Of a stretch of 64,000 nt of DNA, positions 4,003 through 33,619 are shown one piece after another; within the stretch, counting starts at the first letter, position 1, and the number at the start of each line of letters is the position of its first letter. Under the pieces are notes generated by a model. It worked only from the letters and a program-made list of their open reading frames with translations, was not told the DNA's origin and did no database searches. Made by a program: the position numbers and the translations under genes. The stretch comes from a virus. Taxonomy: Duplodnaviria; Heunggongvirae; Uroviricota; Caudoviricetes. The stretch lies in the IMG/VR virus record IMGVR_UViG_3300012286_000299, positions 109,277-173,276 of that record. One strand, written 5' to 3'.

Positions 4003-4170
4003 ATGAAAAACATACACATAATACCAACTACAAAGTCAAATAAGTTGTATAAAAATCTATTAACAGATAAATTATTTATTTTAGAAAATTCATTTATGGA
4101 TGTTTCTGAATGTAATAGAGAATATCAAAACATCTACATCACTTCTGATGAAGAAATTAAAGAAGGAGAT
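4003..4170 (+). repeat. dispersed direct repeat (copy 1), high nucleotide identity to 5706-5873
   Basis: Aligned by eye with only scattered substitutions. Includes the ATG and part of the upstream AAATAAATAA leader. Confidence 0.8.
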
Positions 4171-4953
4171 TATGGATTAATAGTAAATGAAGTATTATCA
4201 TATAGTCAAATGCACAAAAAATGGGGTATACCACAAGGTAAAAAAATCATTCTAACAACAGACCAAGACTTAATCAAAGATGGTGTACAACCTATTGATG
4301 ATGAGTTTTTAGAATGGTTTGTTAATAATCCAAGTTGTGAAAGTGTTGAGATTGAAGAATTATGTGGTGGATGTGGCAGTAATGATGGGGACTGTTGGAG
4401 AAGTAAAGAGTGTAATAAAGGGTATTATAAAAATAAATACAAAATAATCATTTCAAAAAAAGAACCTAAACAAGACATAAACACTTGTAAAAACTTTGAT
4501 AGAGAAATTGGTTGTGATTTAGCAGATTGTCTTTGTGAAAAAGAAGAACCTACTCAAGAACTAGCTAAAACAGAAATTGATTGGTCAGGTTTTCCAAAAT
4601 CAACACAAGAACAAGTTGGTTTTACTGAACCAAATATCATTGATGAATGGTTAGATAAAAATGGTAGTCCAGAAATTGCTAAACAAGTTGATGAAGAAGC
4701 AAAAGAGTTATGTGAACAAGAAACACTTGAAGAAGCTTTGGAAAGATTATCTTTAACAGATACTAAAAAATTAAGTATATTTTTAGATGGAATGAGGTAT
4801 CAACAAGAAAGAAGTTATAGTGAGGAAGAAGTTAAAATAATGTACAGAAGTTTATGGACTCCGAAGGATTTTGGGTTTTATAGTTCTTATGAAATGGAAA
4901 GTAATTTTGAAGACGATTTTAATTTATGGTTTGAACAATTTAAAAAGAAATAA
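4003..4953 (+). CDS. hypothetical Cys-rich protein (paralogue A of ORF 5706)
   Basis: ORF track. The N-terminal ~56 aa are near-identical to ORF 5706. Central CGGCGSNDGDCWRSKEC. Shares KEEPTQEL.KTEIDWSG with the paralogue. Confidence 0.7.
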   Translation: MKNIHIIPTTKSNKLYKNLLTDKLFILENSFMDVSECNREYQNIYITSDEEIKEGDYGLIVNEVLSYSQMHKKWGIPQGKKIILTTDQDLIKDGVQPIDDEFLEWFVNNPSCESVEIEELCGGCGSNDGDCWRSKECNKGYYKNKYKIIISKKEPKQDINTCKNFDREIGCDLADCLCEKEEPTQELAKTEIDWSGFPKSTQEQVGFTEPNIIDEWLDKNGSPEIAKQVDEEAKELCEQETLEEALERLSLTDTKKLSIFLDGMRYQQERSYSEEEVKIMYRSLWTPKDFGFYSSYEMESNFEDDFNLWFEQFKKK

Positions 4954-5705: not shown

Positions 5706-5873
5706 ATGAAAAACATACACATATTATCAACAGATAAACCAAGTAGGTTGTATAGAAATCTATTAACAGACAAATTATTCATTTTAGAAAATTCAGTTAT
5801 GGATGTTTCTGAATGTAATAGAGAATACCAAAACATCTACATCACTAATGATGAAGAAATTAAAGATGGTGAT
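5706..5873 (+). repeat. dispersed direct repeat (copy 2) of 4003-4170
   Basis: See copy 1. Confidence 0.8.
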
Positions 5874-6194
5874 TGGTTTTTAACTCCGATGAATGATTTA
5901 GAATATGCAAATAAGGAATGGATAATTACTATTTCAAAATTTATACCTAAAACTAATTTTAAAAAAATCATCCTAACAACAGACCAAGATTTAGATGGAA
6001 TACAAGCTATTGATTATGAGTTTTTAGAATGGTTTTGTAAAAATAGTAGTTGTGAGTTTGTTGAGGTTCAAAAAGGATTTGCTGATGGAAGTAATTATGG
6101 TTATAACTTTCTTGATTACAAAATAATCATTACAAAAGAAGAACCTACTCAAGAACTTCCTAAAACAGAAATTGATTGGTCAGGACAAAACTAG
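5706..6194 (+). CDS. truncated paralogue B of ORF 4003
   Basis: Same N-terminus as ORF 4003 but lacks the Cys-rich insert. Homology breaks directly after EIDWSG, then QN-stop. Confidence 0.55.
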   Translation: MKNIHILSTDKPSRLYRNLLTDKLFILENSVMDVSECNREYQNIYITNDEEIKDGDWFLTPMNDLEYANKEWIITISKFIPKTNFKKIILTTDQDLDGIQAIDYEFLEWFCKNSSCEFVEVQKGFADGSNYGYNFLDYKIIITKEEPTQELPKTEIDWSGQN

Positions 6195-12501: not shown

Positions 12502-13026
12502 ATGATTACAAAACCCAATGTACCTTTTATTGACGAGGTAGAAGAATTTAATGCCGTGATGGGCAAACCAAACAATTATGAACCAATTATTCCCGAAAGA
12601 AAAGAGTGGGAGTTCGTGTACAATTTCATCCTTGAGGAACTTGAAGAATATCGAGAAGCTTGCGAAGCAGGAAACATCGTGGAAGTTTTGGATGCTTTGT
12701 GCGATATTACTTATGTTGCCACTGGGAACGGTGCTATGCTACATGGCCTTAAGGGTAAGGTATGGCCGGCATATCAAGAAGTACAAGCTTCAAATTTATC
12801 GAAAGCTTGCCAAACTGAAGACGAAGCTAAAGCAACTGTCATTCAAAGATCGAGTGAACAAGGTGAAGAATGTCATTACGAAAAAGTTGGAGAATATTTC
12901 ATCGTATATCGAACAAGAGATAGAAAAGTAATGAAAAACGTAAATTACTTCAAACCAAACTTAAAACAATTCTTTACAGATAAAGAAATTCAAAAATCAT
13001 ATTTAATACAAATAACAGGAAATTAA
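12502..13026 (+). CDS. MazG-like all-alpha NTP pyrophosphohydrolase
   Basis: Acidic metal-binding helix pair EELEEYREACEAGNIVEVLDALCDITYV. Visibly GC-richer than its neighbours. Confidence 0.7.
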   Translation: MITKPNVPFIDEVEEFNAVMGKPNNYEPIIPERKEWEFVYNFILEELEEYREACEAGNIVEVLDALCDITYVATGNGAMLHGLKGKVWPAYQEVQASNLSKACQTEDEAKATVIQRSSEQGEECHYEKVGEYFIVYRTRDRKVMKNVNYFKPNLKQFFTDKEIQKSYLIQITGN

Positions 13027-13041
13027 TTTAAACTAGAAAAC

Positions 13042-13464
13042 ATGACAGCAATACAAGTATTAGGATTAATAGCATTTATAATAGCATTATCAGGTGTATT
13101 AGGGTTCTTATTTCAAGCCGGAAACGACGAAGAAGAAGAAGTTACATTTACTACTCCTGAGTATACTAAAGAAGAACTAGAAAATATTAAAGCTGCTGAA
13201 GCAGAATATAATAAACCTGTAGTAGCCGAAGAACTTGAAGTTACAGAACCTGAATTTGTAGCAAAAGGACTTAGTAGTACACCAGTAGCTCCGGAATTTC
13301 CAAACATAGGAAAGGATCTTACAAAAGTATTCCCACCAGATGCAACTATTAACACAGAAGAAATAGTAGAAACTAAATTGAAAAAGGTAAAAGAACCTAA
13401 ATCAGAGTTTCCAATTGATAAACCAAAGAAAAAAAGAAAATATTATCCTAAAAAAGCAAAATAA
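13042..13464 (+). CDS. membrane-anchored acidic protein with a Lys-rich tail
   Basis: N-terminal TM segment, EEEE/EELE-rich body, KPKKKRKYYPKKAK tail. Confidence 0.6.
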   Translation: MTAIQVLGLIAFIIALSGVLGFLFQAGNDEEEEVTFTTPEYTKEELENIKAAEAEYNKPVVAEELEVTEPEFVAKGLSSTPVAPEFPNIGKDLTKVFPPDATINTEEIVETKLKKVKEPKSEFPIDKPKKKRKYYPKKAK

Positions 13465-13539
13465 TATTAAATAAAGGTTAATTTTACATTATGGACTGAA
13501 TTAATTTAATTATTTTATAATCTGTCCATATTTATATGC

Positions 13540-14085
13540 ATGGATAAAAAAGTATGCAGTAAATGTAAAATTGAAAAAACTTTAGAAGAGTTTTCAATAG
13601 ATTTGTCTACTAAAAGTGGTAGAAAAAGTCAATGTAAAGAATGTAGAAAATTAATTTCTAAAAAGGAATATAAAAGTGATCCTTTATCTCATAATGTTAG
13701 AACTAGTGCTTATTATAAGGATAATAAAGAGTCTACTAGGAAGCAACAACGTGATTATGAAAGAAAACGTTTAAAAGTAGATCCCTTATTTAAATTAGGA
13801 AAATCAATGAGATGTCATTTGTATAGAATATTACAAGGACAAAAATCCATGAGTACTAAAGAATTATTAGGGTATAATGTTGAAGAATTAAAAATTCATA
13901 TTGAATCTCTTTGGGTAGAAGGAATGAATTGGGAAAATTGGGGTAAAGAATGGGAAATTGATCATATTTATCCTCTATCTCAATATTTAAAAGAAGGAGA
14001 AACTAGGCCTAGTATAATTAATAGTCTTAAAAATCTTCAACCTATAAGTAAAATTGAAAATCGAAAAAAATCAAATAAGTTATAA
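13540..14085 (+). CDS. HNH homing endonuclease (free-standing), paralogue of ORF 50911
   Basis: N-terminal CSKCK...CKEC zinc motif. C-terminal EIDHIYPLS...NLQPISKIENRKKSN. Abuts the polB start (TAATG). Confidence 0.8.
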   Translation: MDKKVCSKCKIEKTLEEFSIDLSTKSGRKSQCKECRKLISKKEYKSDPLSHNVRTSAYYKDNKESTRKQQRDYERKRLKVDPLFKLGKSMRCHLYRILQGQKSMSTKELLGYNVEELKIHIESLWVEGMNWENWGKEWEIDHIYPLSQYLKEGETRPSIINSLKNLQPISKIENRKKSNKL

Positions 14086-15812
14086 TGTATAAGAATATTG
14101 TTACGAATTCATTAGGGAAAAATAGATATAAGGTCATTTTATACACTGATGATGGAGTTGAAGAACATGAATTTCAAAATTATGCATATGAAGTGTGTAG
14201 CCAAAACCAGGCTACACATTTTGGTCTAAATGGAGAACCTTTAATGAAAACTACTTATTGGGATAAAACCAATCCCTTTATTCATTATCATGATATGCCT
14301 ATTCATCAAAAATTTTTAATTGATAAATATGGTACTAATGATGAACCCTCAACTACACATCAAGAAATATTTTTTGATATTGAGATTGAAATGGGAGGTG
14401 CTCTTACACCTGAGTACATTAGAAAAGCTCCAAAACCTGTTACTTCAATTGCTTGGTGGCATAAACAAGAAGATAAATGGTATATTTTAATTTTAGATAA
14501 AGATAATAAAATTGAAAAAACTACTATAGAGAATAAATATATTATTCCTGTACCTAACGAAAGAGAATTATTAAATAAGTGGTTAAATTATTTGAACAAA
14601 GTTAACCCTGATATCTTAATTGGCTATAATAGTGATTACTTCGATATACCTTACCTATACTATAGAATACTAAATCAATTAGGTGAACGTAGAGCTAATG
14701 CTTTCTCTCCAATAGGTAAAGTTAAAGAACAAAAACATTCAAATGAATCAGGAATGGTTTTTTGGAATGAAGAACAACCTATAAGAATAGAAGGAATGTA
14801 TTCTTTGGATTACATTCGCTTACATAAAAAATATTCGTTTGCAGATGAACCATCTTATAAATTAGATGCTTTAGGAGAAAAGTATTGTAAATTAGGTAAA
14901 ATTGAATATGAAGGTAGTTTAGACAGATTATTTGAAACTGATAAAGAAAAATTCATTGAATATAACTTTCGAGATGTTGAAATCCTAAAAGCACTTGATA
15001 ATAAATTTAATTATATTAGTTTAACTAAAAATCTAGCTCATAAGGGTAAAATCCATTATGATGATGTTTATCAATCATCTAAAATTCATGATGGAGCTAT
15101 TTCAGCATTCTTATTATCAGAAGATATAATTCCTCCTTCACGAGATAGAAACCCAATTAAAAAAGCTAATTACGCTGGTGGTTATTTGTTTTGTCCTAAA
15201 GCAGGGTTATATCGCTATATGTTTGATGAGGATTTAACTTCACTATACCCATCAATTATTATGTCTCTTAACATTGGTAAAGAAACATTAATAGGTAGAA
15301 TTATTGATTTAAATGATAGAAACAATCATTTAGGTTTAAATGATTTAATAAATGATATTGAAGATAGACCTCGTACTATGGAATGGTTTACTAATAAAGA
15401 TAAGTTCAGTAAAATTGATTGGACTTCTTCTAAAGTAGTTAAACTAATTCAACAATATAATTTGGCTATCTCAGCAAATGGTGTTATCTTTCGTACAGAT
15501 AAAGAGTCTGTATTATCAACTATTCTGAATAAGTGGTTTGATGAAAGGGTTTTATACAAAAATAAAATGAAAGCTGCATATAAAGCAGGAGATACAGTAG
15601 GTGGTGAGAAATATCATTTATTGCAATATACAATGAAAATCTTACTTAATTCACTTTATGGTGCTACAGCATTACCTTCATTTAGATATGGGAATGTAAT
15701 TCTATCAGAAGCAATCACTTTAAGTGGACAACGTATTATTCAAGAATCAGCACTTTGTGCTAACAGACATATGAACAAAGTTATTCGTGGTGAAATTAAA
15801 TTAGAGATATAA
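14085..15812 (+). CDS. family-B DNA polymerase, N-terminal piece (exonuclease domain plus motifs A and B)
   Basis: ExoI FFDIEIE, ExoII IGYNSDYFDIPYL, ExoIII YNFRDVEIL, motif A DLTSLYPSII, motif B KILLNSLYG. Stops before motif C. Confidence 0.92.
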   Translation: MYKNIVTNSLGKNRYKVILYTDDGVEEHEFQNYAYEVCSQNQATHFGLNGEPLMKTTYWDKTNPFIHYHDMPIHQKFLIDKYGTNDEPSTTHQEIFFDIEIEMGGALTPEYIRKAPKPVTSIAWWHKQEDKWYILILDKDNKIEKTTIENKYIIPVPNERELLNKWLNYLNKVNPDILIGYNSDYFDIPYLYYRILNQLGERRANAFSPIGKVKEQKHSNESGMVFWNEEQPIRIEGMYSLDYIRLHKKYSFADEPSYKLDALGEKYCKLGKIEYEGSLDRLFETDKEKFIEYNFRDVEILKALDNKFNYISLTKNLAHKGKIHYDDVYQSSKIHDGAISAFLLSEDIIPPSRDRNPIKKANYAGGYLFCPKAGLYRYMFDEDLTSLYPSIIMSLNIGKETLIGRIIDLNDRNNHLGLNDLINDIEDRPRTMEWFTNKDKFSKIDWTSSKVVKLIQQYNLAISANGVIFRTDKESVLSTILNKWFDERVLYKNKMKAAYKAGDTVGGEKYHLLQYTMKILLNSLYGATALPSFRYGNVILSEAITLSGQRIIQESALCANRHMNKVIRGEIKLEI

Positions 15813-16075
15813 TGGCATTAAAAGGACAATCAATTAGAAACGGGGTTACTATTAATATAAATGGTGTTAAAGCCGAAAAACAATTAGTTATTGATTTATC
15901 TGAAAATTGGGATGAATCACAAGAAAGATTCTTTAAGAAAATGCTTAAACAAGGAGGAAAATGTAAAGTTAATGGAAACTCATTTGAAATTATCCTCAAA
16001 GAAAGATCTGATATAGATTCAAAAGGAAATAGACCTATTAATTTACCACCAGTACCAGGAGAAAGAACATTTTAA
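15812..16075 (+). CDS. 87-aa ORF inserted between the two polB pieces
   Basis: ORF track. TAATG coupling upstream and TAATATG downstream. No nuclease or intein motif recognised. Confidence 0.5.
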   Translation: MALKGQSIRNGVTININGVKAEKQLVIDLSENWDESQERFFKKMLKQGGKCKVNGNSFEIILKERSDIDSKGNRPINLPPVPGERTF

Positions 16076-16076
16076 T

Positions 16077-17012
16077 ATGAAACATTTAGAAGATACCCCA
16101 TGGTGGATATGTGATGAAGGTGATTTTAATTTTTGTGCTTATGTTGATACAGATTCTAATTATTTCAATGCTGAGCCATTATTGAAACATTTATATCCTG
16201 ATTTTGATGAAAAAACTGATCAAGAAAAAGATGATTTATTAGAGAAAGTAGCTCTTAAGTACCAAGATATTATAACTGAACACTATGATATACTTGCTAA
16301 AGAAGCCTTTAATATTAGTACACACCGATTAGAAATGAAAACTGAGTGTGTTATTCGTTCTGCTTATTTTAGAGCTACAAGACGTTATGCTCAATGGATT
16401 ACTAAAAAAGAAGGTATAGCAAAAGAGGAATTAGACATTAAAGGATTAGAATTTAAAAAAGCTAATTTCCCTAAATATTTTGGAAAGTTTTATCAAGAAA
16501 TTCTTGAATTAATCATTAAAGGTACTTCACAGAGTATTATAGATAAGAAAATTCATGAATTTAGACAAGAAGCAACCTCAACTGATATAGATTTTACCCT
16601 TATAGGTAACCCAACATCAGTTAAAACATTAAATGAGTATATAGCTTCCCACCCTAAACCAGGTAAAATATTATCTGAAATAAAATCAGGAGCTGGTGCA
16701 TCAGTTAAAGCTTCTATCAAACATAATGATTTATTACGATTTTGGCAATTAGATTCAAAACATAGTCAAATAGTACAAGGTGATAAAGTAAAATGGGTTT
16801 ATTTAAAAAATAACCCTTATAATATAGAAGCTATTGCATTTTTAGAATTTGATATGGCTGATAAAATCAAAGACTTCATTAATGAATATATTGATAGAGG
16901 GAAAAGTTTTGAAACTATATTACAGAAAAAACTACAAGGCTTCTATGATGACCTTGAATGGATGTTACCACCAGCAAATCCACTAATACATAAATTTTTT
17001 ACATTCAACTAA
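16077..17012 (+). CDS. family-B DNA polymerase, C-terminal piece (motif C plus thumb)
   Basis: YVDTDSNYF (motif C) lies 25 aa from the start. Same reading frame as the N-terminal piece. Confidence 0.88.
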   Translation: MKHLEDTPWWICDEGDFNFCAYVDTDSNYFNAEPLLKHLYPDFDEKTDQEKDDLLEKVALKYQDIITEHYDILAKEAFNISTHRLEMKTECVIRSAYFRATRRYAQWITKKEGIAKEELDIKGLEFKKANFPKYFGKFYQEILELIIKGTSQSIIDKKIHEFRQEATSTDIDFTLIGNPTSVKTLNEYIASHPKPGKILSEIKSGAGASVKASIKHNDLLRFWQLDSKHSQIVQGDKVKWVYLKNNPYNIEAIAFLEFDMADKIKDFINEYIDRGKSFETILQKKLQGFYDDLEWMLPPANPLIHKFFTFN

Positions 17013-17734
17013 TGGATAAAACAATATTAACACAAATAATTGAAAGCTTTTACTTAAATGGATTAACATCTCAAGTTAAATTTAAGGTAAAAAACAACGA
17101 AGCTCACATTAAATTTGCAGTCGACAATAAGGATTGCATAGGAGAAGTTATTGCGCCTATAACTTTAGAAGATTGCGAGATTGGTATTTTTAATACTAGT
17201 CAATTACTTAAATTAATTAATATAACTAATGATTTTATTGATTTAAAATTAGAAAAAAATGGTATTCACTTTTTAAAACTTCATATTAGTGATAACCAAT
17301 TTGATTTATCATATAATTTAAGTGATTTAGGGTTAATTCAAGATCCTGGTGTAGTTCCTAATTTACCTCCTCATGATTTAGAATTTGATATTAATTTTGA
17401 TTTTACTCAAAAATATATTAAAGCACATAACGCATTAGATAAACCACCTCGTTTTGAAATAGGTGTATCTAAAGATTTTAAAAATGATGAAGTTATAAAT
17501 TTCATGATTGGTGAAAAATCATCTTATTCAAATAAAGCAAATTTTGCAGAATCTGGGAAAATTATAAATAAAATAAAACCTATAGCATTTAGTGCTAATA
17601 ACTTTAGAGAAGTAATATCTGTAAATAAAAATGCAGTAGGTAAGGTATGTGTTTATAAAGATGGGTTGTTAAAAATTAATCTAGAAGAAGCAGGAGTAAA
17701 ATCAGAATATTTTCTTGTAGCTTTACATGAGTAG
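17012..17734 (+). CDS. putative sliding clamp (gp45/PCNA-like)
   Basis: Call rests on position and size only: 240 aa, coupled to polB, with the clamp loader downstream. Confidence 0.45.
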   Translation: MDKTILTQIIESFYLNGLTSQVKFKVKNNEAHIKFAVDNKDCIGEVIAPITLEDCEIGIFNTSQLLKLINITNDFIDLKLEKNGIHFLKLHISDNQFDLSYNLSDLGLIQDPGVVPNLPPHDLEFDINFDFTQKYIKAHNALDKPPRFEIGVSKDFKNDEVINFMIGEKSSYSNKANFAESGKIINKIKPIAFSANNFREVISVNKNAVGKVCVYKDGLLKINLEEAGVKSEYFLVALHE

Positions 17735-17806
17735 TAATATTTATGACAAATGACCTAAGGGCAATTAATAACGAGTAGCAAAAGCACTCACAAAACGTAA
17801 ATCAAT

Positions 17807-18214
17807 ATGAGTACAAAATTTAATGAATTTGACATTCTATTCCACAATTTCTTTTACCCAACAAGTGGATTCGGTTCAGCAGCAACCACAAAACAACCTC
17901 ACCCTTTAAATATCTTTTATGACGATAACGGACTTCACTTTGAAGTAGCGTGTACTGGTCTTACTAAAGATGAGGTAAATGTAGATATCGAGGATGATAT
18001 CTTAAAAATTAGTTATAATAAAGCAGAAGAAGAAAAAGAACTTCATCCTGGAACAATCGTAAGAGGATTGTCTAAAAAATCTTTTAATTTAGGTTATAAA
18101 ATTTCAGCTAAATATGATTTGTCATTAGCACTAGCAAAACTAGAAAATGGTTTGCTAGAAATTTCTATACCTGTAGCTGAAAAAGCAAAACCAAAATCAA
18201 TAAAAATAAAATAA
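17807..18214 (+). CDS. small heat-shock protein (Hsp20/alpha-crystallin)
   Basis: LHFEVACTGLTKDEVNVDIEDDILKISYNK ... LENGLLEISIP. Confidence 0.8.
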   Translation: MSTKFNEFDILFHNFFYPTSGFGSAATTKQPHPLNIFYDDNGLHFEVACTGLTKDEVNVDIEDDILKISYNKAEEEKELHPGTIVRGLSKKSFNLGYKISAKYDLSLALAKLENGLLEISIPVAEKAKPKSIKIK

Positions 18215-18242
18215 AAATCTAAGCCCTTAGGTTAAGTTTTAT

Positions 18243-18273
18243 TTGGAGATTCAAGAAAAATTTATTATATTAT
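18243..18273 (+). promoter_or_regulatory. promoter, TTG-N20-TATATTAT
   Basis: TTG at 18243-18245 (the ORF track used it as a start codon), 20-nt spacer, TATATTAT. Confidence 0.55.
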
Positions 18274-18299
18274 ATAATAAAAATTTAATTATAAAAGTT

Positions 18300-18602
18300 A
18301 TGGCAAATCCTCAATTCAAAGGTAGACAAAAAGGATCTATCAAAAAAACATCAACAATTTCCGATCCATCATTGGGTAATTTTAAAATTATCGTAGATGA
18401 TGAAAGTTATAATCTAGTTTTAACTGACCCTGAAACTGGAAAGGAAAAAATTATTGGTTATTATACTAGATTAACTAATGCTTTAAAGTATGTAGTTAGA
18501 ACCCAAACAGTTGAGAAAAAACCAACTTATACTATTAAAGAATATATCCAAGAATTAGAAACAGTTTTAAACAATTTAAACAATTTAATTAACAATGAGT
18601 AA
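18300..18602 (+). CDS. hypothetical protein
   Basis: The ORF-track frame was trimmed to the first ATG (MANPQFKGRQ), downstream of the promoter. Confidence 0.6.
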   Translation: MANPQFKGRQKGSIKKTSTISDPSLGNFKIIVDDESYNLVLTDPETGKEKIIGYYTRLTNALKYVVRTQTVEKKPTYTIKEYIQELETVLNNLNNLINNE

Positions 18603-18888
18603 ATTAGAATCAAGAGGTGGTAGTATCATCTTAAAACAACTTGAAGAAAATGAAATGAAAGTTGGTAACATCATTATCCCTGATAATGGTCATGAAAAAT
18701 CACTTGTAGCTGAAATTATAGCAGTATCAGATGTATTTAATTGGCATAGAGGAGAATTTGTACCATCAGATCTAAAAATAGGTCAAAAAGTAGTAATCCC
18801 ACCAATGGGAGCACAAAAATTAACATTAGATAATGTAGATTATTTAATCATTTCACAAGAACAAATCCCAGCAATAATAGTAGATTAA
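18595..18888 (+). CDS. groES: co-chaperonin GroES/Cpn10-like
   Basis: 97 aa, directly upstream of groEL. GNIIIPD ... KIGQKVVIPP pattern. Confidence 0.75.
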   Translation: MSKLESRGGSIILKQLEENEMKVGNIIIPDNGHEKSLVAEIIAVSDVFNWHRGEFVPSDLKIGQKVVIPPMGAQKLTLDNVDYLIISQEQIPAIIVD

Positions 18889-18890
18889 TT

Positions 18891-20531
18891 ATGACAGAAA
18901 CAGTATTTGGACCCGAATTAAAATCAAAACTATTAGAAGGAGTTAGAAAACTCAATAATAGTGTATCATCTACCCTAGGACCAGCAGGTAGAACAGTATT
19001 AATTAAAGGTGAGTATGGTCAATTAACCGTAACTAAAGACGGTGTATCCGTAGCTAAGGCTTTTAAAGAATTAGAAGATCCAGTAGAATCTACAGGTGCA
19101 GAATTAGTACAAAAAGTATCAGTTAAATCCGCAAATGAAGTTGGAGATGGAACAACTACAGGTACTTTATTAACCTATGCTCTTTTAGAAGAAGGTTTAA
19201 AACATGTTAATGCAGGACAAAATGCAGTAGAAATTAAAAAAGGTATTGATGCTGCTGTAGAAGAAATTAAATCCTCACTTAACAATTTAACAGAAGATAT
19301 TTCTGATAACCAACAAATTAAAGAAGTTGCTACTATTTCAGGTAATAACGATGAAGAAATTGGTAATTTAATTGCTACTGCTTTAGAAAAAGTAGGCAGA
19401 GATGGAGTAGTTGCTATTGAAGAGTCTAAATCAGGCGAAACTTCACTTGAAGTTGTAGAAGGTATGCAGTTTGATAGAGGTTACAAATCACCTTATTTTG
19501 TAACTGATAATAATACAATGACAGCTGTATTAGATAACCCATATATTTTAATTTATAATGGTAGAATTACTAACCACCAAGAATTAATTCCAGCTTTAAC
19601 TTTAGCTAACACTGAAAAACGTTCATTATTAGTAGTAGCAGAAGATATTGATGGTGAAGCATTAGCAGTAGCTATTGTTAATAAAATGAGAGGTATTGTA
19701 AATGTTGTTGCTGTTAAAGCTCCTGATTTTGGAGATCGTAGAACAATGGCTTTAGAAGATTTAGCTATTATTACAGGTGGTCAAGTTTTATCTAAAGATA
19801 AGGGGCATAAATTAGAAAAAATTGATGTTAATACCTTAAAACAATGTTTAGGTACATCTCGTACTGCTACAATTGGAAAAGAGAAAACTACTATTGTAGA
19901 TGGTAAAGGTGAAGAAGAAGCTATTACAACTAGAGCTCAAGAAATTAAAAAACAAATTGATGACGCTGGTTCACCATTTGAAAAAGAAAAATTACAAGAG
20001 CGTTTAGGTAAGATGATTGGTGGAGTAGCTATTATTAACGTAGGTGGTAATAGTGAATTAGAAATCAAAGAGAAAAAAGATAGAGTAGAAGATGCTTTAT
20101 TCGCTACAAGAGCTGCTTTAGAAGAAGGTATTGTAGTAGGTGGTGGTACTGCTTTATTATATGCTAGAAAATCTATTACATTTGAAGGTGCAAATGATTT
20201 TGTTTTAGGTAAAAAAATAGTTTATAAAGCTGTAACAGCACCCTTCCAGAAAATTTTAACTAATGCCGGACACGATCTTGTAGAAGTACAATATTTAGGT
20301 TCTAAATTAACTGATTCTGAAAAAGGAAGTAATTGGGCAGGTCTTAATTATAAAGATTTATCAACAATGGATTTCAAATCAGCAGGTATTATTGATCCTA
20401 AAAAAGTAACTCGTATTGCATTAGAAAATGCAGCATCAGTTGCAGGTACAATTTTAACAACTGAATCTGTAATCTACGAGAAAAAAGAAGACAATAAAGA
20501 AGAAATCAATCCTATGCAAGGAATGATGTAA
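18891..20531 (+). CDS. groEL: chaperonin GroEL/Cpn60
   Basis: GPAGRTVLI, VTKDGVSVAK, VGDGTTTGT, GIVVGGGTALL, and a PMQGMM tail. Confidence 0.97.
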   Translation: MTETVFGPELKSKLLEGVRKLNNSVSSTLGPAGRTVLIKGEYGQLTVTKDGVSVAKAFKELEDPVESTGAELVQKVSVKSANEVGDGTTTGTLLTYALLEEGLKHVNAGQNAVEIKKGIDAAVEEIKSSLNNLTEDISDNQQIKEVATISGNNDEEIGNLIATALEKVGRDGVVAIEESKSGETSLEVVEGMQFDRGYKSPYFVTDNNTMTAVLDNPYILIYNGRITNHQELIPALTLANTEKRSLLVVAEDIDGEALAVAIVNKMRGIVNVVAVKAPDFGDRRTMALEDLAIITGGQVLSKDKGHKLEKIDVNTLKQCLGTSRTATIGKEKTTIVDGKGEEEAITTRAQEIKKQIDDAGSPFEKEKLQERLGKMIGGVAIINVGGNSELEIKEKKDRVEDALFATRAALEEGIVVGGGTALLYARKSITFEGANDFVLGKKIVYKAVTAPFQKILTNAGHDLVEVQYLGSKLTDSEKGSNWAGLNYKDLSTMDFKSAGIIDPKKVTRIALENAASVAGTILTTESVIYEKKEDNKEEINPMQGMM

Positions 20532-20573: not shown

Positions 20574-21485
20574 ATGTTCAATAAAAAACACACTATTTGG
20601 GTAGAAAAATACAGACCAGATACTTTAGAAGGGTATATTGGTAATGAATTTTTTGTAGAGAAATTAAATCAATGGGTAGGAGATAATGATATCCCTCATC
20701 TATTACTTACAGGTCCTGCTGGTACAGGAAAAACAACTGCTGCTAAATTAATAGTAAATAATATTAATTGTGATTTTATCTACATTAATTGTTCAGATGA
20801 AAATGGTGTTGATACTATTAGAGATAAAGTAAAATCGTTTGTTTCCGCTGCTAGTTTTAAACCACTTAAAGTGGTTATAATGGATGAAGCAGATTTCTTA
20901 ACACTTAATGCTCAAGCATCTTTAAGAAACGTAATTGAAACTTATAGTTTAAATGCTCGTTTTATATTTACTTGTAATTTTGTAGAAAGAATTATGGAAC
21001 CAATTCAATCTAGAACAAATATATTTGAATTAATGCCTCCTTCTATGCAAGATGTAGCATTCAAATGTGTTGAAATTTTAGATTTAGAAAAAATTACTTA
21101 TACTAGAGCAGATATAGTAAGAATTGTAAAACAAACTTACCCTGATATTAGAAAGTGTTTAAACTTACTCCAAATATCTATTAGAAATGGAGAATTAATT
21201 GAAAGTAGAACTTCATCTAATTTTAAACAAACCTCTGACCAAGTAATAGAATTACTTAAAACTAAAAACGTTAAAAACTTTACTGCTATAAGACAGTTAG
21301 TAATGGATTCTAATGTTAGAGATTACAACGAGTTATATAGAGTATTATTTGAAAGAGCAGATGAATTTAATGAATCTGCTGTTACTACTCTTATAATAGC
21401 TGATTACCAACACAAATCAATTATGGCACCTGATAAAGAAATTACATTTTGTGCCTGTATCGCTAAATTATTAACAACTAAATAA
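20574..21485 (+). CDS. clamp-loader AAA+ ATPase (RFC small subunit / gp44-like)
   Basis: Walker A GPAGTGKTT, Walker B VIMDEADFLT, sensor PIQSRT. Confidence 0.9.
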   Translation: MFNKKHTIWVEKYRPDTLEGYIGNEFFVEKLNQWVGDNDIPHLLLTGPAGTGKTTAAKLIVNNINCDFIYINCSDENGVDTIRDKVKSFVSAASFKPLKVVIMDEADFLTLNAQASLRNVIETYSLNARFIFTCNFVERIMEPIQSRTNIFELMPPSMQDVAFKCVEILDLEKITYTRADIVRIVKQTYPDIRKCLNLLQISIRNGELIESRTSSNFKQTSDQVIELLKTKNVKNFTAIRQLVMDSNVRDYNELYRVLFERADEFNESAVTTLIIADYQHKSIMAPDKEITFCACIAKLLTTK

Positions 21486-21487
21486 AA

Positions 21488-21736
21488 ATGGAAGGACAAC
21501 AACCACAAATGAGCTTAGATTTAAGCAAAACAACTCCAATTTTAACTGCTGCTGGCGGTAAAATTTGGCATCAAGGATACCTTTTAAGAAAAGTATCTAA
21601 ATTTATAACTGGTACTAATGAAGACAATGTGCTACCAATCCAAGTATTCTATGATCCAGAAACTGGTGAGATTTTAAAAGATGGTTTACCTGATGAGTTT
21701 AAATTCATTTTAGAAGATGGACAAGAAAATCAATAG
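21488..21736 (+). CDS. hypothetical protein
   Basis: ORF track. Confidence 0.55.
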   Translation: MEGQQPQMSLDLSKTTPILTAAGGKIWHQGYLLRKVSKFITGTNEDNVLPIQVFYDPETGEILKDGLPDEFKFILEDGQENQ

Positions 21737-22139
21737 TATATTTGATTGGGTAAAACAAATGTCTTATGATAAAGAATCATGGTCCTCATTTTCGAATGAG
21801 GAGCATGAAATCTTTAGTAATTTTATGGTTAACAAAATAATTTCAATGAATCCTAACTATATTGAGTTAGTAGCTGAAATACAAGAATACCAAATGCCCA
21901 AACAAAAACTATATGAATTTTATTGTAAAACTTTACCTAAACAAAAATTCTTTAACAAATATCAAAAACCCTCTAAACAACAATACCCAAAAGAAGTAAT
22001 AAATTTATTAACACTTTATTATCAAATAAGTACAAGAGAAGTTTTAGATTACTGTAATATCTTAACACAACAAGATATAAAAGATATTTTATTACAATTA
22101 GGTAAAGATGAAAAAGAAATCAAAAAATTACTAAAATGA
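21717..22139 (+). CDS. hypothetical protein (possible clamp-loader accessory subunit, by position only)
   Basis: ORF track; 20-nt overlap with the upstream ORF. Confidence 0.5.
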   Translation: MDKKINSIFDWVKQMSYDKESWSSFSNEEHEIFSNFMVNKIISMNPNYIELVAEIQEYQMPKQKLYEFYCKTLPKQKFFNKYQKPSKQQYPKEVINLLTLYYQISTREVLDYCNILTQQDIKDILLQLGKDEKEIKKLLK

Positions 22140-23619: not shown

Positions 23620-25044
23620 ATGAAAGAAGGTTATATACCAAAAGAACAAAGAAAAAAGATATTATTCATTTGTGATGATATCAGAATGCACTCGGGTGTA
23701 GCTACAATGGCTCGAGAAATAGTTTTAGGAACCTCTCACCATTATAACTGGGTAATAATTGGAGCAGCTATTGATCATCCTGAATCAGGACAAAGATTAG
23801 ACTTATCTGATGCTACTAACAAAGAAACTGGAAATGAGGATACAAATGTAATTATCTATCCTAGTAATGGATATGGAAGTGCTGATTTAATCAGATATAT
23901 GATAAAGAATGAAAAACCTGATGGGTTAATGTTCTTTACGGATCCAAGATATTATGACTGGTTATTTGCTATCGAAAATGAAGTAAGAAAACAAATACCA
24001 ATGATTTACTTAAACATTTGGGATGATTTACCTGCTCCACTTTATAATAGAGCATTCTATGAATCATGTGATGCTTTATTAGCTATCTCAAAACAAACCA
24101 AAAACATTAATGAAATGGTTTTAGGTAAAAAAGCAGATGGTAAAGTTATCTCTTATGTACCTCATGGTATTAATGAAAAAATGTTTTATCCTATAGAAGA
24201 TAAAACACAGTTACAAGAAACTAAGAAAAAATTATTTGGAGATAAAGAATTTGATTTTGTATTATTCTTTAATTCACGTAATATTAGGAGAAAATGTACT
24301 AGTGATTTATTAGCAGCTCATAAAATGTTTTTAGATTCTTTACCTAAAGAAAAAGCTGATAAAATTGCCTTAGTATTACATACACAAGTTGTAGATAATA
24401 ATGGTACTGATTTAGATGCTGTTAGAACTTTATTATTTGGTAAGAAATCAAACATATTCTTTTCAGATCAAAGAATTGATACTGCTGAGTTAAATAGAAT
24501 TTATAATATATCTGATGCTGTAGTATTACCTTCTTCAAATGAAGGATGGGGATTAGCAATAACTGAAGCTATGATGGCTGGTAAAATGATAATCGCTAAT
24601 GTAACTGGAGGTATGCAAGATCAAATGCGTTTTGAGGATGAAAATGGTAAATGGATTGAATTAACACCTGAATTTCCTTCTAATCATTTTGGTACTTATA
24701 AAAAATGTGGTAAGTGGGCTGTACCTGTATTCCCTAATAACATGTCATTAGTAGGTTCACCTATAACTCCTTATATTTGGGATGATAGATTAGATTTTAG
24801 AGACTTAGCAAATGCTATTAATCAGGTTTATGAATTATCTCCTGAAGAAAGAGTAGAAAATGGTAAAGCAGCTAGAGAATGGGTAACTTCTGATGAATCT
24901 GGTATGAGTGCTAGAATGATGTGCAATAATGTAATTAAAGATATTGATTTAACTTTAGAAACATTTAAACCTAAAAAATCATTTGATCTACTTTTAGTAG
25001 AAGATTTGGAACCTCTAGAATTAGTTCATAAATTAACGTATTAA
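23620..25044 (+). CDS. GT-B glycosyltransferase (GT4-like)
   Basis: LPSSNEGWGLAITEAMMAGKMIIANVTGG (EX7E motif). Confidence 0.8.
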   Translation: MKEGYIPKEQRKKILFICDDIRMHSGVATMAREIVLGTSHHYNWVIIGAAIDHPESGQRLDLSDATNKETGNEDTNVIIYPSNGYGSADLIRYMIKNEKPDGLMFFTDPRYYDWLFAIENEVRKQIPMIYLNIWDDLPAPLYNRAFYESCDALLAISKQTKNINEMVLGKKADGKVISYVPHGINEKMFYPIEDKTQLQETKKKLFGDKEFDFVLFFNSRNIRRKCTSDLLAAHKMFLDSLPKEKADKIALVLHTQVVDNNGTDLDAVRTLLFGKKSNIFFSDQRIDTAELNRIYNISDAVVLPSSNEGWGLAITEAMMAGKMIIANVTGGMQDQMRFEDENGKWIELTPEFPSNHFGTYKKCGKWAVPVFPNNMSLVGSPITPYIWDDRLDFRDLANAINQVYELSPEERVENGKAAREWVTSDESGMSARMMCNNVIKDIDLTLETFKPKKSFDLLLVEDLEPLELVHKLTY

Positions 25045-25102
25045 TTAGATAAGATAAGTTTTCCATTGGGTACATATATTTATTATCATAAATACGTACC
25101 TA

Positions 25103-25774
25103 ATGGATTATCAAAGAATTTACAACCAATTAATAGAAAAAGCTCAAAGTAGAACCTTAGAAGGTTATATTGAAAAACATCATATTATCCCTAAATGTCT
25201 AGGAGGAAGTAATGATAAAGAAAATTTAGTAGAATTAACAGCAAGAGAACATTTTTTATGTCATATGTTACTTTGTGAGATTTATCCTAAAGAAAATAAA
25301 CTAAAACATGCCTTATTTTTAATGTCTATTGGTAAACAAAGGATTAAAGAAAAACATTATGTTGTTGGTTCTAGAGTTTATGAAAGGCTTAAAACTGAAT
25401 ATTCTCAATTTTTAACAGGTAAAAAACAATCACAAGAAACTAAAGATAAAAAGAGTAAAGCTATGTTAGGAATTTGGGAAGATAAAACCCAAGAAGAAAA
25501 ATCTAAGATAGGACAAAAAAGATGGGACACTAGAATCAAAAATGGGACTACTAATATTAAAAGTATTAATAGAAGTAAATCATTAAAGGGTAGAGAAATT
25601 ACATGGGACCGAGGAGTTAATAAAATCATTATTCAATATGATAAACAAAATAACTTTATTAAAGAATGGTCTAGTATATCAGAAGCTCAAAGGCAAATAG
25701 GAGGGGATATTAAAGGTGCTTTAGCAGGGAGGCAAAAAACTGCTGCAGGTTTTATTTGGAAATACAAAAACTAG
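25103..25774 (+). CDS. HNH homing endonuclease with a C-terminal HTH tail, inserted between two GT genes
   Basis: EKHHIIPKCLGGSNDKENLVELTAREH. Tail reads WSSISEAQRQIGGDIKGALAGRQKTAAGFIWKY. Confidence 0.85.
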   Translation: MDYQRIYNQLIEKAQSRTLEGYIEKHHIIPKCLGGSNDKENLVELTAREHFLCHMLLCEIYPKENKLKHALFLMSIGKQRIKEKHYVVGSRVYERLKTEYSQFLTGKKQSQETKDKKSKAMLGIWEDKTQEEKSKIGQKRWDTRIKNGTTNIKSINRSKSLKGREITWDRGVNKIIIQYDKQNNFIKEWSSISEAQRQIGGDIKGALAGRQKTAAGFIWKYKN

Positions 25775-25786
25775 TTATTATATTAA
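25756..25786 (+). promoter_or_regulatory. promoter, TTG-N20-TATATTAA
   Basis: The -33 TTG lies inside the 3' end of the HNH ORF. TATATTAA at 25779-25786. Precedes ORF 25798. Confidence 0.5.
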
Positions 25787-25797
25787 AATAAAAAAAA

Positions 25798-27105
25798 ATG
25801 AAAAATACATTTGTGATATCATGTCCCATAGATTGTTATGCAGGGTATGGAGCACGTTCACGTGATTTAGTTAAAGCGTTAATTAATTTAGATAAATACG
25901 ATGTTAAAATAATGCCTCAACGTTGGGGAAATACACCTTGGAGTTTTATTGAAGATCATCAAGAAGAATGGGGATTTTTACAACCACATATTTTAACAGG
26001 TCAGTTAACTCAACAACCTGATATTTGGGCTCAAATAACAGTACCTAATGAATTTCAAGCTATTGGAAAATATAATATTGGAATAACAGCGGGTATCGAA
26101 ACTACTATTTGTGCTCCTCAATGGATTGAGGGTATGAATAGAATGAGTTTAAATTTAGTTTCATCAGAACATGCTAAAAAAGTATTTCAAGATTCTAAAT
26201 TTCAAAAACATGATGAAAGGACTAAACAAGTTGTTGGTGTAATAGAATTAACATCTCCTATTGAAGTATTATTTGAAGGAGTAGATATTGTTAAATACTT
26301 TGCATCTACATTAACTCCTACTTCCGAAATAAAGCAAGCCTTAGATAATGTAAAAGAAGAGTTTGCATTTTTATTTGTGGGTCATTGGCTTCAAGGTGAT
26401 TGGGGTCAAGATAGAAAAGATGTAGGAGGGTTAGTTAGAGTATTCTTAGAAGCCTTTAAAAATAAATCTAAAAAACCTGCTCTTATATTAAAAACAATGT
26501 CAGGTCCAACTAGTATTATAGATAGAGATAATATCTTGAAAAAAATAGACGTTATAAGACAATCTATGCCTACTAAAAACTTACCTAATATTTACTTATT
26601 TCATGGTGAAATATCAGACGATGAAATGAATCAATTATATAACCATTCTAAAGTAAAAGCAATGGTTAGTTTTACTAAAGGAGAAGGATTTGGTAGACCT
26701 TTACTTGAATTTACTCAAACTAAAAAACCAGTTATTGCTTCAAATTGGAGTGGACAATTGGATTTCTTAAACCCTGAATTTACTTCATTAATACCTGGTA
26801 CTTTAACTAATATTCATCCATCTGCTCAAGTTAAGGATATGTTAATTGATGGTTCACAGTGGTTTACAGTAGATTATGGATTTGCTGGTGGTATATTAAG
26901 AGATTATTTTGAAAATTATAAAAAATATCAAGATAATGGTAAACGTTTAGCACATTATTGTAAAACTAATTTCTCATTTGAGAAAATGCAAGAAAAATTA
27001 GATACTATATTAACTGCTAATATACCTGAGTTTCCAAAGCAAGTGCAATTGAAATTACCTCAATTAAAAAAGGTTGAGTTACCTAAATTAAAAAAAGTAG
27101 AATAA
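25798..27105 (+). CDS. GT-B glycosyltransferase
   Basis: SFTKGEGFGRPLLEFTQTKKPVIASNWSG (EX7E-like). Confidence 0.75.
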   Translation: MKNTFVISCPIDCYAGYGARSRDLVKALINLDKYDVKIMPQRWGNTPWSFIEDHQEEWGFLQPHILTGQLTQQPDIWAQITVPNEFQAIGKYNIGITAGIETTICAPQWIEGMNRMSLNLVSSEHAKKVFQDSKFQKHDERTKQVVGVIELTSPIEVLFEGVDIVKYFASTLTPTSEIKQALDNVKEEFAFLFVGHWLQGDWGQDRKDVGGLVRVFLEAFKNKSKKPALILKTMSGPTSIIDRDNILKKIDVIRQSMPTKNLPNIYLFHGEISDDEMNQLYNHSKVKAMVSFTKGEGFGRPLLEFTQTKKPVIASNWSGQLDFLNPEFTSLIPGTLTNIHPSAQVKDMLIDGSQWFTVDYGFAGGILRDYFENYKKYQDNGKRLAHYCKTNFSFEKMQEKLDTILTANIPEFPKQVQLKLPQLKKVELPKLKKVE

Positions 27106-27106
27106 A

Positions 27107-27559
27107 ATGAAAGATAAATTATCTATATGCCCACGTTGCGGGAGTGATGCTTGTTATGTCACTCCTGTAAATGAAGTAAAAAACAACTATTTCTGTTTTG
27201 GATGTGGTTTTCAAACAAATGACCTAATGAAAGAAGGTGAATTTGATTTTGAAACATATGAAGAACCATTACCTGAACTATATAAAGATCTTAAAAACAC
27301 TGATTCAGAAAAACGTGTTTGGTATCCAATTACTATTAATATTCAGGATAAAGGAACGGTATTTGCCAATGGAAAAACCAAAGATAATTGGACATGGGCA
27401 GGAGTAAAGGCCGTTGAAGTAAGCGAAGAAGAAAAAGGTAAATTTAAAATACCTGGTACTGAAGATTACTATACTCATAAAACTGATATTAAATCTTTAA
27501 AGAATTATCCACAAGATGATTTTATTGAAGCCCTAGATTATATAGGTTTTTATAATTAA
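27107..27559 (+). CDS. zinc-ribbon protein
   Basis: CPRCGSDAC ... CFGCG. Confidence 0.6.
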   Translation: MKDKLSICPRCGSDACYVTPVNEVKNNYFCFGCGFQTNDLMKEGEFDFETYEEPLPELYKDLKNTDSEKRVWYPITINIQDKGTVFANGKTKDNWTWAGVKAVEVSEEEKGKFKIPGTEDYYTHKTDIKSLKNYPQDDFIEALDYIGFYN

Positions 27560-27562
27560 TAT

Positions 27563-28180
27563 ATGAGAATAAGTTATGCAATTCCTGTTTGTAATGAACA
27601 TGAAGAATTAATGAGATTACTAAGCATCCTCATCACCAATAAAAGAGATGAGGATGAAATAGTAGTTCAATGTGATCAGGGTAATACTACACCTGAAGTA
27701 TATAAAGTATTAGACCAATTTTTTGGTAGAATAAGTGTTATAGAATTTCCATTAAAAGGTAATTTTGCGGCTTTTAAAAATAATTTAAAGAAGCATTGTA
27801 CTGGAGAATGGATTTTTCAAATTGATGCTGATGAATACGTAACTATTGAATTTTTACAAAGTTTACATTTAATTTTACAAGATAATCCTACAACAGAAGT
27901 ATTTTTGCTTCCTAGAATTAATACTGTAGAAGGATTAACTCAAGAGCATATTAATAAATGGAGATGGAATGTAAATGAGAAAGGATGGGTTAACTTCCCA
28001 GATTTACAACCTCGTATACTTCAAAATTCACCTAAAATTAATTGGGGTAATAAAGTACATGAAGTACTAATGGGTCATAGTACATGGTCTACTTTACCAT
28101 TAGAAGATGATTATTGTCTGTATCATCCAAAACATATTGAAAGACAAGAACGACAAAATAATTTATACGATTTATTATGA
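27563..28180 (+). CDS. GT-A (family 2-like) glycosyltransferase
   Basis: ISYAIPVCNEHEEL ... QIDADEY (DxD). Confidence 0.7.
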   Translation: MRISYAIPVCNEHEELMRLLSILITNKRDEDEIVVQCDQGNTTPEVYKVLDQFFGRISVIEFPLKGNFAAFKNNLKKHCTGEWIFQIDADEYVTIEFLQSLHLILQDNPTTEVFLLPRINTVEGLTQEHINKWRWNVNEKGWVNFPDLQPRILQNSPKINWGNKVHEVLMGHSTWSTLPLEDDYCLYHPKHIERQERQNNLYDLL

Positions 28181-29529: not shown

Positions 29530-30322
29530 ATTACATATAGTAATACCTATTGGAGTAAGTTCACCTGGGACTCCAGTACCTGAATTTTTATTAAATGGTA
29601 TAGAAAGTTTAAAAGAACAAACATTAGATGATATTCTAATTACAGTAGCAGCTGACGAAAATATATCAGATGAATGTAAACAAGTATTAAAAGATACAGG
29701 TGTAAATGTTGAATGGTTTCCTGAGTATTCTTATTTTACTAAAGAAGGAATTTGGGGTAAAATATTTAAATGTTGGGAAAATTATGATTCACAATATGTT
29801 TCATTTCTTCATTATGATGATCTTTGGGAAAGTAATAAAGCTTTAAATCAAATTAATTTTATTGAAAAAAACAATTTAGATGGTTGTTGGTCCCAAGTAT
29901 ATCTTATAAATGATAATAATGAAATTACTAGTGGAGATAGTATGCAAATTAGTAAATTATCTGCTAATTCTGTAGGATATTTAATTCCATGGATGTGTCA
30001 TTCTACTATTATAAAAAAAGATACCATATTAAACTGTGGAATATTAGAATATAGAGAAAAATGGAATTGTGATTTTGAATGGTTATATACTGTATTTTTA
30101 CATAAAATTAAAAACCTAATGAAATGTGAGGATGCTATATTTTTATGGAGACAACATGAAAGTCAAGTATCACACGCTCAAGGGATTAATATGAAAGAAG
30201 ATAATAATCATGTTAAAGAACAAAGAGAACTTGTAGGTTATTCGTTTGATGAAACCATGGAAGATTCTCGTTATGTGATGGAAAATATAAATTTAGAGGA
30301 GATTAAAAAACTATACAAATAA
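29522..30322 (+). CDS. GT-A (family 2-like) glycosyltransferase
   Basis: LHIVIPIG...ESLKEQT...ILITVAADE...FLHYDDLW. Confidence 0.65.
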   Translation: MYKLHIVIPIGVSSPGTPVPEFLLNGIESLKEQTLDDILITVAADENISDECKQVLKDTGVNVEWFPEYSYFTKEGIWGKIFKCWENYDSQYVSFLHYDDLWESNKALNQINFIEKNNLDGCWSQVYLINDNNEITSGDSMQISKLSANSVGYLIPWMCHSTIIKKDTILNCGILEYREKWNCDFEWLYTVFLHKIKNLMKCEDAIFLWRQHESQVSHAQGINMKEDNNHVKEQRELVGYSFDETMEDSRYVMENINLEEIKKLYK

Positions 30323-30324
30323 AA

Positions 30325-31871: not shown

Positions 31872-31877
31872 AAAATT

Positions 31878-33618: not shown

Positions 33619-33619
33619 T

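Follow-up and report, generated by a model that had tools for sequence, protein, structure and literature searches.

Several enzymes of replication and nucleotide metabolism are known to be encoded by genes in pieces. The closest cases are T4-related phages of Aeromonas and Acinetobacter (25, 31, 44RR, 65 and 133), in which gene 43, the gene of the DNA polymerase, is split into 43A and 43B (Petrov et al. 2006, 2010; PMC2988022, PMC3061061). According to these accounts, the products of the Aeromonas phages are active and co-purify, and the cistrons are separated by 2 bp to 3 kb of DNA, which sometimes includes a homing endonuclease gene (seg) (PMC2988022, PMC3061061); the split lies in the fingertip, between two finger helices and upstream of motif B (PMC3061061). 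In Methanothermobacter thermautotrophicus the genes for PolB1 and PolB2 are 85 kb apart and the two polypeptides are reported to form an active enzyme (Kelman et al. 1999, as cited in PMC3061061), and a split family-B DNA polymerase is described for group B magroviruses (PMC5434244). Other genes have been fragmented by mobile elements: nrdA of phage Aeh1 is split by the homing endonuclease gene mobE and remains functional, T4 gene 39/60 is split by mobA (PMC2988022, PMC3045599), and assembly of the fragmented Aeh1 NrdA is ascribed to protein interaction domains derived from the mobile element (PMC3045599). Finally, PMC2677866 describes fractured genes that carry split inteins and have a free-standing endonuclease between their two pieces. 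Here we analyse a stretch of 64,000 nucleotides (the window) from a virus of the Caudoviricetes (positions 109,277 to 173,276 of IMG/VR record IMGVR_UViG_3300012286_000299), in which the gene for a family-B DNA polymerase of the T4 gp43 type is cut after motif B, with a conserved gene for a protein of 87 amino acids (aa) lying between the two pieces.

The window has a G+C content of 29.7%. Three abutting open reading frames (ORFs) on the plus strand, named polN, mid and polC in this analysis (Table 1), encode 575, 87 and 311 aa. Direct reading of the motifs bore out a preliminary description of this DNA, made from the letters alone, which had assigned Exo I–III and motifs A and B to polN: the exonuclease motifs read FFDIEIE (Exo I), YNSDYFD (Exo II) and YNFRDVE (Exo III), and the polymerase motifs DLTSLYPS (A) and KILLNSLYG (B). 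Profile searches match polN to PF03104 (1.5e-21), PF00136 (6e-22) and phrog_262 (1.9e-108, positions 22–567), and polC to phrog_262 (1.6e-45, positions 565–846) and phrog_1918 (3.6e-42). Since coverage of phrog_262 continues from the one half into the other, no part of the polymerase is missing at the cut. Taken together, polN and polC hold Exo I–III, motifs A, B and C and all profile matches of a T4 gp43-type family-B enzyme, which is nevertheless no single polypeptide, as there is a stop codon at 15810–15812 and a new start at 16077. The same holds for 80 related loci. These derive from IMG/VR searches with polN and with mid, which gave 135 loci; the 80 are distinct and share at least 50% polN identity with the window.

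As the preliminary description had claimed, polN and polC lie in one frame in the window, the interval 15810–16076 measures 267 nt, and the three genes are joined by TAATG and TAA-T-ATG. Both junctions suggest translational coupling. In 60 of the 80 related loci the polN stop overlaps an ATG (TAATG or ATGA), and in 66 the ORF preceding polC, whichever gene this is, ends −2 to +4 nt from the ATG of polC; coupling of the pieces is therefore the rule. A scan of 13000–18000 for consensus promoters and terminators performed no better than on shuffled sequence.

RB69 and T4 structures match polN at motif B, and polN residue 567 aligns to residue 609 of RB69 gp43. The cut maps to the loop formed by RB69 gp43 residues 610–616, directly before the β-strand that bears the motif C aspartates. 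This is not the site of the fingertip splits. phrog_2062 ends at polN residue 499 and phrog_1918 begins at 508, while polN continues through motif B to residue 575; the two families represent fingertip-split forms. As these meet near residues 499–508 and the cut described here comes after RB69 residue 609, the sites are different. The palm cut thus adds a third natural cut site among the family-B polymerases of T4-like phages. With motif C on polC and motifs A and B on polN, the catalytic aspartates of one active site reside on two polypeptides. This amounts to a natural experiment in how modular a polymerase can be, and engineered split polymerases might use it as a template.

Two details of the preliminary description need correction here. 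polC starts 21 aa, not 25 aa, before YVDTDS, and the spacing between motifs B and C in a fused polN–polC, which had been considered close to that of T4 and RB69, amounts to about 70 aa; RB69 and the unsplit relative L090 have about 50. The roughly 20 extra residues at the cut, relative to both, belong to new tails. At the end of polN the pattern ...HMNKV[IL]RGE[IL]KLE[IL]* recurs over the 80 split loci, with some variant tails, and is absent from L090. At the beginning of polC almost all split loci show M.HLE[DE]TPW[WF]IC...CAYVDTDS, and the N-terminal tail is missing from the alignments of L090, RB69 and Mel-JY01. RGEIKLEI-COOH on polN and MKHLEDTPWWICDEGD on polC are likely docking elements, the latter probably for polN. 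An alternative polN tail, KILKDxKFKEEF..., replaces RGEIKLEI in some relatives, both together with an HNH gene (L007 and L009) and without one (L014, L015 and L016); it looks like a scar of endonuclease insertion and loss. The far end of polC, ...KFFTFN, is probably a clamp-binding peptide.

Every one of the 80 loci is split at the same residue and carries homologous new tails. Unsplit polB genes are found in L090 (45% identity), in the L048 group (35%) and in the nearest cultured phages, Microcystis phage Mel-JY01 and Sinorhizobium phage phiN3. The comparison with relatives having an uninterrupted polB, which had been proposed as a check, shows L090, Mel-JY01 and phiN3 to be continuous where the window is cut and has mid between the pieces. 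A neighbour-joining tree groups the split loci in a single clade, to which L090 is sister; the loci that lack mid branch within this clade. A fused-junction query composed of the last 100 aa of polN and the first 109 aa of polC matched 3,514 proteins. As the best 120 of these 3,514 matches comprise the polC half only (308–311 aa, apart from fragments), there is no close fused relative. The ratio of non-synonymous to synonymous substitutions (dN/dS) is 0.13 for the polN end, 0.11 for the polC start and 0.195 for mid; both polymerase halves are under strong purifying selection. The split is an old, stable arrangement of a large uncultured group of aquatic phages.

The split marks a widespread group of aquatic T4-like phages rather than a curiosity of one genome; one mid variant is recorded in 237 blocks of a public collection, Tara Oceans samples included. 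Because the split is widespread, annotation pipelines and surveys using polB as a marker will mis-handle such phages unless it is known. Among cultured phages, blastn found no relative and tblastn only relatives of at most 37% identity, and no GenBank phage in the collection searched has mid or the split. No description of the split or of the mid family was found in the literature searched, a limited collection that does not prove absence. A separate observation concerns LR756508.1, an uncultured phage of 484 kb, where tblastn places polN-like parts (in two pieces) and a polC-like part about 5 kb apart at approximately 259594–267284; this suggests another, independent PolB interruption in a jumbo phage.

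The gene between the halves had been called private, which proved wrong. A single-sequence search with mid matched 212 proteins, all of 87 aa among the best 120, and a profile search matched 1,758 protein clusters at E ≤ 1e-3; the matches listed are 86–88 aa long, have no Pfam domain and are named 'hypothetical'. More than 100 viral contigs carry mid. An exhaustive profile search of 1.84 billion representatives yielded 140 representatives at 50% identity, nearly all of them stand-alone. Invariant residues are Q6, S7, I8, R9, K23, S30, W33, Q37, F41, K43, Q47, G48, G49 and P82, and none of the invariant positions is His, Asp, Glu or Cys; the C-terminal tail ends in a conserved PG...F motif whose terminal Phe is near-invariant. 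AlphaFold2, run on a 137-sequence alignment, predicts a core (residues 12–62) of β-hairpin, two helices and β-hairpin, followed by a disordered tail. The preliminary description had already reported that the ORF is free of HNH, GIY-YIG, LAGLIDADG and intein signatures; this is upheld, as there is no Pfam or PHROG match and the ORF is not inserted in frame. Pfam searches with 26 mid members gave nothing credible, and a hidden Markov model (HMM) of mid finds only mid itself in the window, where it is thus single-copy and has no similarity to the endonucleases or other ORFs; nor is it similar to the endonucleases found in the gaps of relatives. This abundant orphan family of the phage replication module is a target for experiment.

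Some candidates for the identity of mid were rejected. The gene position in T4 and phiN3 prompted a comparison with T4 RegA; phmmer and tblastn searches with phiN3 RegA against mid and the window returned nothing below E 0.1, and PHROG gave no RegA-type match. A small ORF before gp44 in phiN3 and a 90-aa ORF before gp44 in L138 are both unrelated to mid. One odd relative was observed, P0316 (L145 202–1047), a 281-aa protein on a 1-kb metagenome contig in which the mid core (residues 120–173) lies inside a sigma-like protein. The similarity of its N-terminus to sigma-70 region 2 is weak (E 0.04), and the region-4-like C-terminus was judged by eye. P0316 may result from a genuine insertion of the domain or from chimeric assembly.

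Among 119 mid-bearing contigs sampled, mid adjoins or lies between the polB halves in 105 and is located elsewhere in 4 (10 undetermined). In L090, whose PolB is intact, it sits between GroEL and the clamp-loader gene gp44, and L221 and L248 share this GroEL–mid–gp44 arrangement. L093 has mid between nrdB and nrdA, L092 behind a ribonucleotide reductase gene. The window module consists of a clamp candidate, Hsp20, GroES, GroEL, gp44 and gp62, with no mid at the GroEL–gp44 position. Likewise, in split loci that lack mid between the halves it is absent within 6 kb and at GroEL–gp44. As these loci are nested in mid-bearing lineages and have no copy nearby, mid was lost from the site secondarily. 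Altogether, mid is a phage gene in its own right, strongly conserved and part of the replication and nucleotide-metabolism module.

The best explanation of these data, to which we assign a probability of roughly 0.78, is a two-subunit T4-type PolB that goes back to one ancient cut in the palm loop and in which mid is a resident gene. The polymerase gene would have been cut once, long ago, in the palm surface loop before the motif C strand, when the ancestor of the split clade acquired mid within polB. Both halves would be made as separate polypeptides that reassemble non-covalently, by analogy with 43A/43B and Aeh1 NrdA, and the three window genes would be read as one translationally coupled unit. 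mid, possibly moved by endonuclease-triggered repair, would itself be the cause of the split; it is the most likely one because insertion and split map to the same branch, that between the split clade and L090. The cut site then turned into an intergenic hotspot collecting homing endonucleases and metabolic cargo, and mid was lost in a few lineages. For mid itself our best guess is a small basic protein that would dock on a replisome partner via its conserved C-terminal PG...F tail. The preliminary description had proposed a two-subunit enzyme together with a new accessory or selfish passenger. Its first part is supported by the clade-wide cut, the purifying selection and the lack of a close fused relative; the 87-aa product may be an accessory or a passenger, two readings weighed below.

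Several points weigh against this explanation. Association and activity of polN and polC and the docking role of the tails are argued from comparison with other systems, and mid as the cause of the split is a parsimony argument on one branch of a quick neighbour-joining tree (about 300 residues, without support values). An alternative order of events, in which a simple frameshift first split the gene and mid was inserted later, could be represented by the loci whose halves overlap by ATGA (L024, L028, L033, L034 and L046); these are, however, nested within mid-bearing lineages, which counts against a frameshift-first order. Furthermore, Pfam, PHROG, a PDB sequence profile and fold comparison detected no family, fold or motif for mid, and its AlphaFold2 model is only moderately confident, with a predicted local distance difference test (pLDDT) value of 74 and a predicted template modelling (pTM) score of 0.52.

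The alternative that survives best, although rather unlikely, regards mid as a functional third component of the polymerase or replisome. It would help polN and polC to assemble, bridge them, or connect them to the clamp or clamp loader, and its position between the halves would fix the proportions of the three products. At the split, mid has been retained in about 105 of the 109 sampled contigs that could be classified, whereas other cargo is gained and lost, and in the window and its near clade the gene is coupled in translation to polN as well as to polC. Where it occurs elsewhere, beside gp44 or between nrdB and nrdA, it again belongs to the replication and nucleotide module, and strong purifying selection and an invariant core are combined with a docking-type C-terminal PG...F tail. 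The retention and coupling of mid, the module in which it lies and its tail speak for a protein associated with the replisome. It is difficult to reconcile with a fixed third component, on the other hand, that the gene occurs in L090 with its unsplit PolB (and in the same placement in L221 and L248), and that in several split lineages polN and polC overlap and have the same tails although mid is found neither within 6 kb nor at the GroEL–gp44 position. Moreover, unrelated genes separate mid from polN or polC in some lineages, and mid has no structural or sequence similarity to any replisome protein. Its presence with an intact PolB, its loss in some split lineages and the inserted genes flanking it argue that mid is not an obligatory polymerase subunit. 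The stricter version of the third-component reading, an obligatory small replisome subunit whose basic core and PG...F tail tether the halves or link them to the clamp or clamp loader, we consider doubtful. If it were true, transposition into polB would have made a three-gene polymerase operon, and a pre-existing accessory gene would have broken an essential enzyme that it then helps to hold together.

It is unlikely that mid is a selfish passenger without a role in replication, such as a degenerate homing-endonuclease remnant or a small mobile cassette. Its sites inside polB, between nrdB and nrdA and beside gp44 are typical of free-standing endonucleases, and real HNH, GIY-YIG and T5orf172 genes share its gap in relatives, but it lacks any nuclease motif or invariant residue of the kinds named above, and resembles none of the endonucleases of the window or the gaps. 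Alleles of mid and polN are shuffled (L011, polN 83% and mid 92%; L004, polN 92% and mid 78%), as expected of a mobile gene; against mobility, mid is single-copy in the window and fixed among close relatives, unlike the patchy HNH gene at 13540. A free-standing homing endonuclease was rejected on these grounds, as there is no nuclease domain and mid is present in all close relatives (polN identity at least 82%). A dN/dS of 0.20, constant length and a family of about 1,750 clusters also speak against a passenger. The mid core within sigma-like P0316, which could point to a mobile cassette, is a singleton on a 1-kb contig.

We regard it as highly improbable that the insert is removed after transcription or translation, as a group I or II intron, an intein or by ribosomal bypass, to give a continuous polymerase. 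Removal at the RNA level, which the preliminary description had offered as its second option, was suggested by halves in one frame and an interval that is a multiple of three. This frame relation is not conserved, as polN and polC share a frame in only 40 of the 80 loci, 24 of which belong to the near clade of the window (polN identity at least 82%), and the gap of relatives consists of 0 to 2.8 kb of unrelated coding genes. The Rfam covariance scan that had been advised (15300–16600, E ≤ 10) recovered only chance matches of snoRNA and miRNA type far below gathering scores and no intron RNA structure, so that group I and II introns were rejected. An intein is excluded because polN ends in TAA and mid has its own ATG and TAA in another frame; there is also no Hint or intein match in Pfam. 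In addition, mid is under selection as a protein. A sequencing or assembly artefact, which had been named as a possible refutation, or a decaying pseudogene has nothing but the bare presence of stop codons inside a conserved gene in its favour and is practically negligible, since the same architecture in well over 100 independent contigs from many samples is due neither to chance nor to sequencing error, dN/dS is low in both halves, and start and stop signals are conserved.

After the gene was broken, the cut became a cargo island: a formerly essential ORF now takes up homing endonucleases and auxiliary metabolic genes. Between polN and polC, relatives have anything from the 4-nt ATGA overlap of the five loci named above to 2.8 kb. 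Endonucleases in this gap are of the HNH type (L007, L009), seg-like GIY-YIG (L110) or T5orf172 (L044). Other genes encode a KdsA-like protein of the DAHP-synthase family, transaldolase, cupin, methyltransferases and glycosyltransferases, and a SET-domain protein, a cytidylyltransferase and a DUF6165 protein occur as well. Several relatives have a Smr-like ORF of 71–74 aa directly upstream of polC, overlapping its start (Table 1). The L029 copy, the one that was scanned, has a weak Pfam Smr match (E 6e-4) below the cutoff. One possibility is that this ORF encodes a stand-alone nickase of the Smr type that behaves as a mobile element at the split.

Upstream of polN there is an HNH-type gene whose stop overlaps the polN start codon. 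It is an indel with respect to close relatives (L016 lacks exactly 13476–14064) and therefore variable cargo, not part of the polymerase. Since it ends exactly on the polN start and close relatives lack it, the gene probably encodes a free-standing homing endonuclease, active or recent, that targets the surroundings of polB. A paralogue is located at 50911–51546; both are HNH or endonuclease VII-like and match phrog_1035.

Table 1. Features of the split polymerase locus, and of related contigs where these are named.
Feature	Sequence	Coordinates	Strand	Description
HNH-type free-standing homing endonuclease gene	window	13540..14085	+	phrog_1035, E 1e-18; weak Pfam HNH_4 / His-Me finger
polN	window	14085..15812	+	N-terminal polymerase subunit: N-terminal and 3'-5' exonuclease domains, palm part with motif A, fingers with motif B
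polN C-terminal tail RGEIKLEI	window	15786..15809	+	extra relative to unsplit relatives; conserved across split clade
TAATG junction	window	15810..15814	+	polN stop overlaps mid start by 1 nt
mid	window	15812..16075	+	87-aa conserved orphan protein; frame differs from polN and polC
TAA-T-ATG junction	window	16073..16079	+	mid stop, 1-nt spacer, polC start
polC	window	16077..17012	+	C-terminal polymerase subunit: palm strand with motif C YVDTDS, KKRY-like region RRYAQW, thumb
polC N-terminal tail MKHLEDTPWWICDEGD	window	16077..16124	+	most residues extra relative to unsplit relatives; conserved clade-wide
240-aa gene	window	17012..17734	+	sliding clamp (gp45) position; start overlaps polC stop
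71–74 aa ORF	L027	6991-7215		motif LDLHG..H...GNS
71–74 aa ORF	L029	7713-7928		motif LDLHG..H...GNS
71–74 aa ORF	L110	6245-6466		motif LDLHG..H...GNS
71–74 aa ORF	L112	1867-2088		motif LDLHG..H...GNS
71–74 aa ORF	L116	939-1154		motif LDLHG..H...GNS
71–74 aa ORF	L119	4599-4814		motif LDLHG..H...GNS

The 240-aa gene that follows polC is conserved in this place in relatives, and Mel-JY01 and phiN3 have a clamp or clamp-sized gene in the same position after the polymerase; as it has no HMM match, its assignment as the clamp is by position only. Between this clamp candidate and gp44, the window encodes Hsp20, GroES and full-length GroEL (17807–20531), a layout conserved in relatives, so that the window phage and its relatives carry their own chaperonin system inside the replication module. 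An 82-aa ORF without a family match (21488–21736) lies between gp44 (20574–21485) and gp62 (21717–22139). Its counterpart in L090 (7204–7428) has a CxxC...CxxC pattern that suggests a zinc ribbon, and small ORFs between the clamp-loader genes are also present in phiN3 (84 aa) and Mel-JY01 (81 aa).

Further features were observed elsewhere in the window. The products of 4003–4953 (316 aa) and 5706–6194 (162 aa) share near-identical first 40 residues, MKNIHI..T.K...LY.NLLTDKLFILENS.MDVSECNRE, which amounts to a local gene duplication; a relative of the family is also found in L106. At 55298–55367 ARAGORN predicts a tRNA-like gene whose anticodon is abnormal in having only two bases (ca); it could represent a tRNA that is degenerate or unusual, or else a false positive. 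From 23620 to 36384 there is a long same-strand run of ORFs of about 150–475 aa, and relatives of two of these adjoin glycosyltransferase-like ORFs in L107. This region looks like a large cluster for cell-surface or nucleotide-sugar modification, which would be unusual cargo for a T4-like phage.

How does this locus compare with the described systems? It shares with 43A/43B that a T4-type family-B replicative polymerase is encoded by two adjacent cistrons. In contrast to these phages, the cut is located about 70 residues further on, beyond motif B, in the palm loop that precedes motif C; a conserved gene that is not an endonuclease occupies the gap, and the arrangement is fixed in a large uncultured clade. 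A cut within the catalytic (palm) domain of a family-B polymerase is a feature in common with PolB1/PolB2 of M. thermautotrophicus and the magrovirus enzyme, as far as their accounts go. These are, however, enzymes of archaea or archaeal viruses that arose by independent events, whereas the present one is from a phage, and those accounts mention neither a resident conserved small gene nor a cargo island, both of which are present here.

With Aeh1 nrdA and T4 39/60, as described in those sources, the locus has in common that an essential replication or nucleotide gene is fragmented by an inserted gene, in those cases still functional, and the interaction domains of Aeh1 NrdA are a direct analogue of the new tails. 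In those cases an HNH endonuclease can be recognised in the inserted gene, and only one phage is affected. The resident gene of the present locus is devoid of nuclease features, the split is ancient and clade-wide, and endonucleases are only secondary visitors, which occupy the gap in some relatives but not in the window. The fractured genes of PMC2677866 are likewise metagenomic and, as presented there, consist of a replication or nucleotide gene in two pieces with an intervening ORF. The present locus differs from them in having no split-intein halves; as the PolB profile is continuous over the cut with only about 20 extra residues, trans-splicing is not expected. The polymerase of the window thus belongs to the replication enzymes encoded by genes in pieces, and it differs from the described phage cases in the site of the cut, in the age and breadth of the split, and in its resident gene and cargo island.

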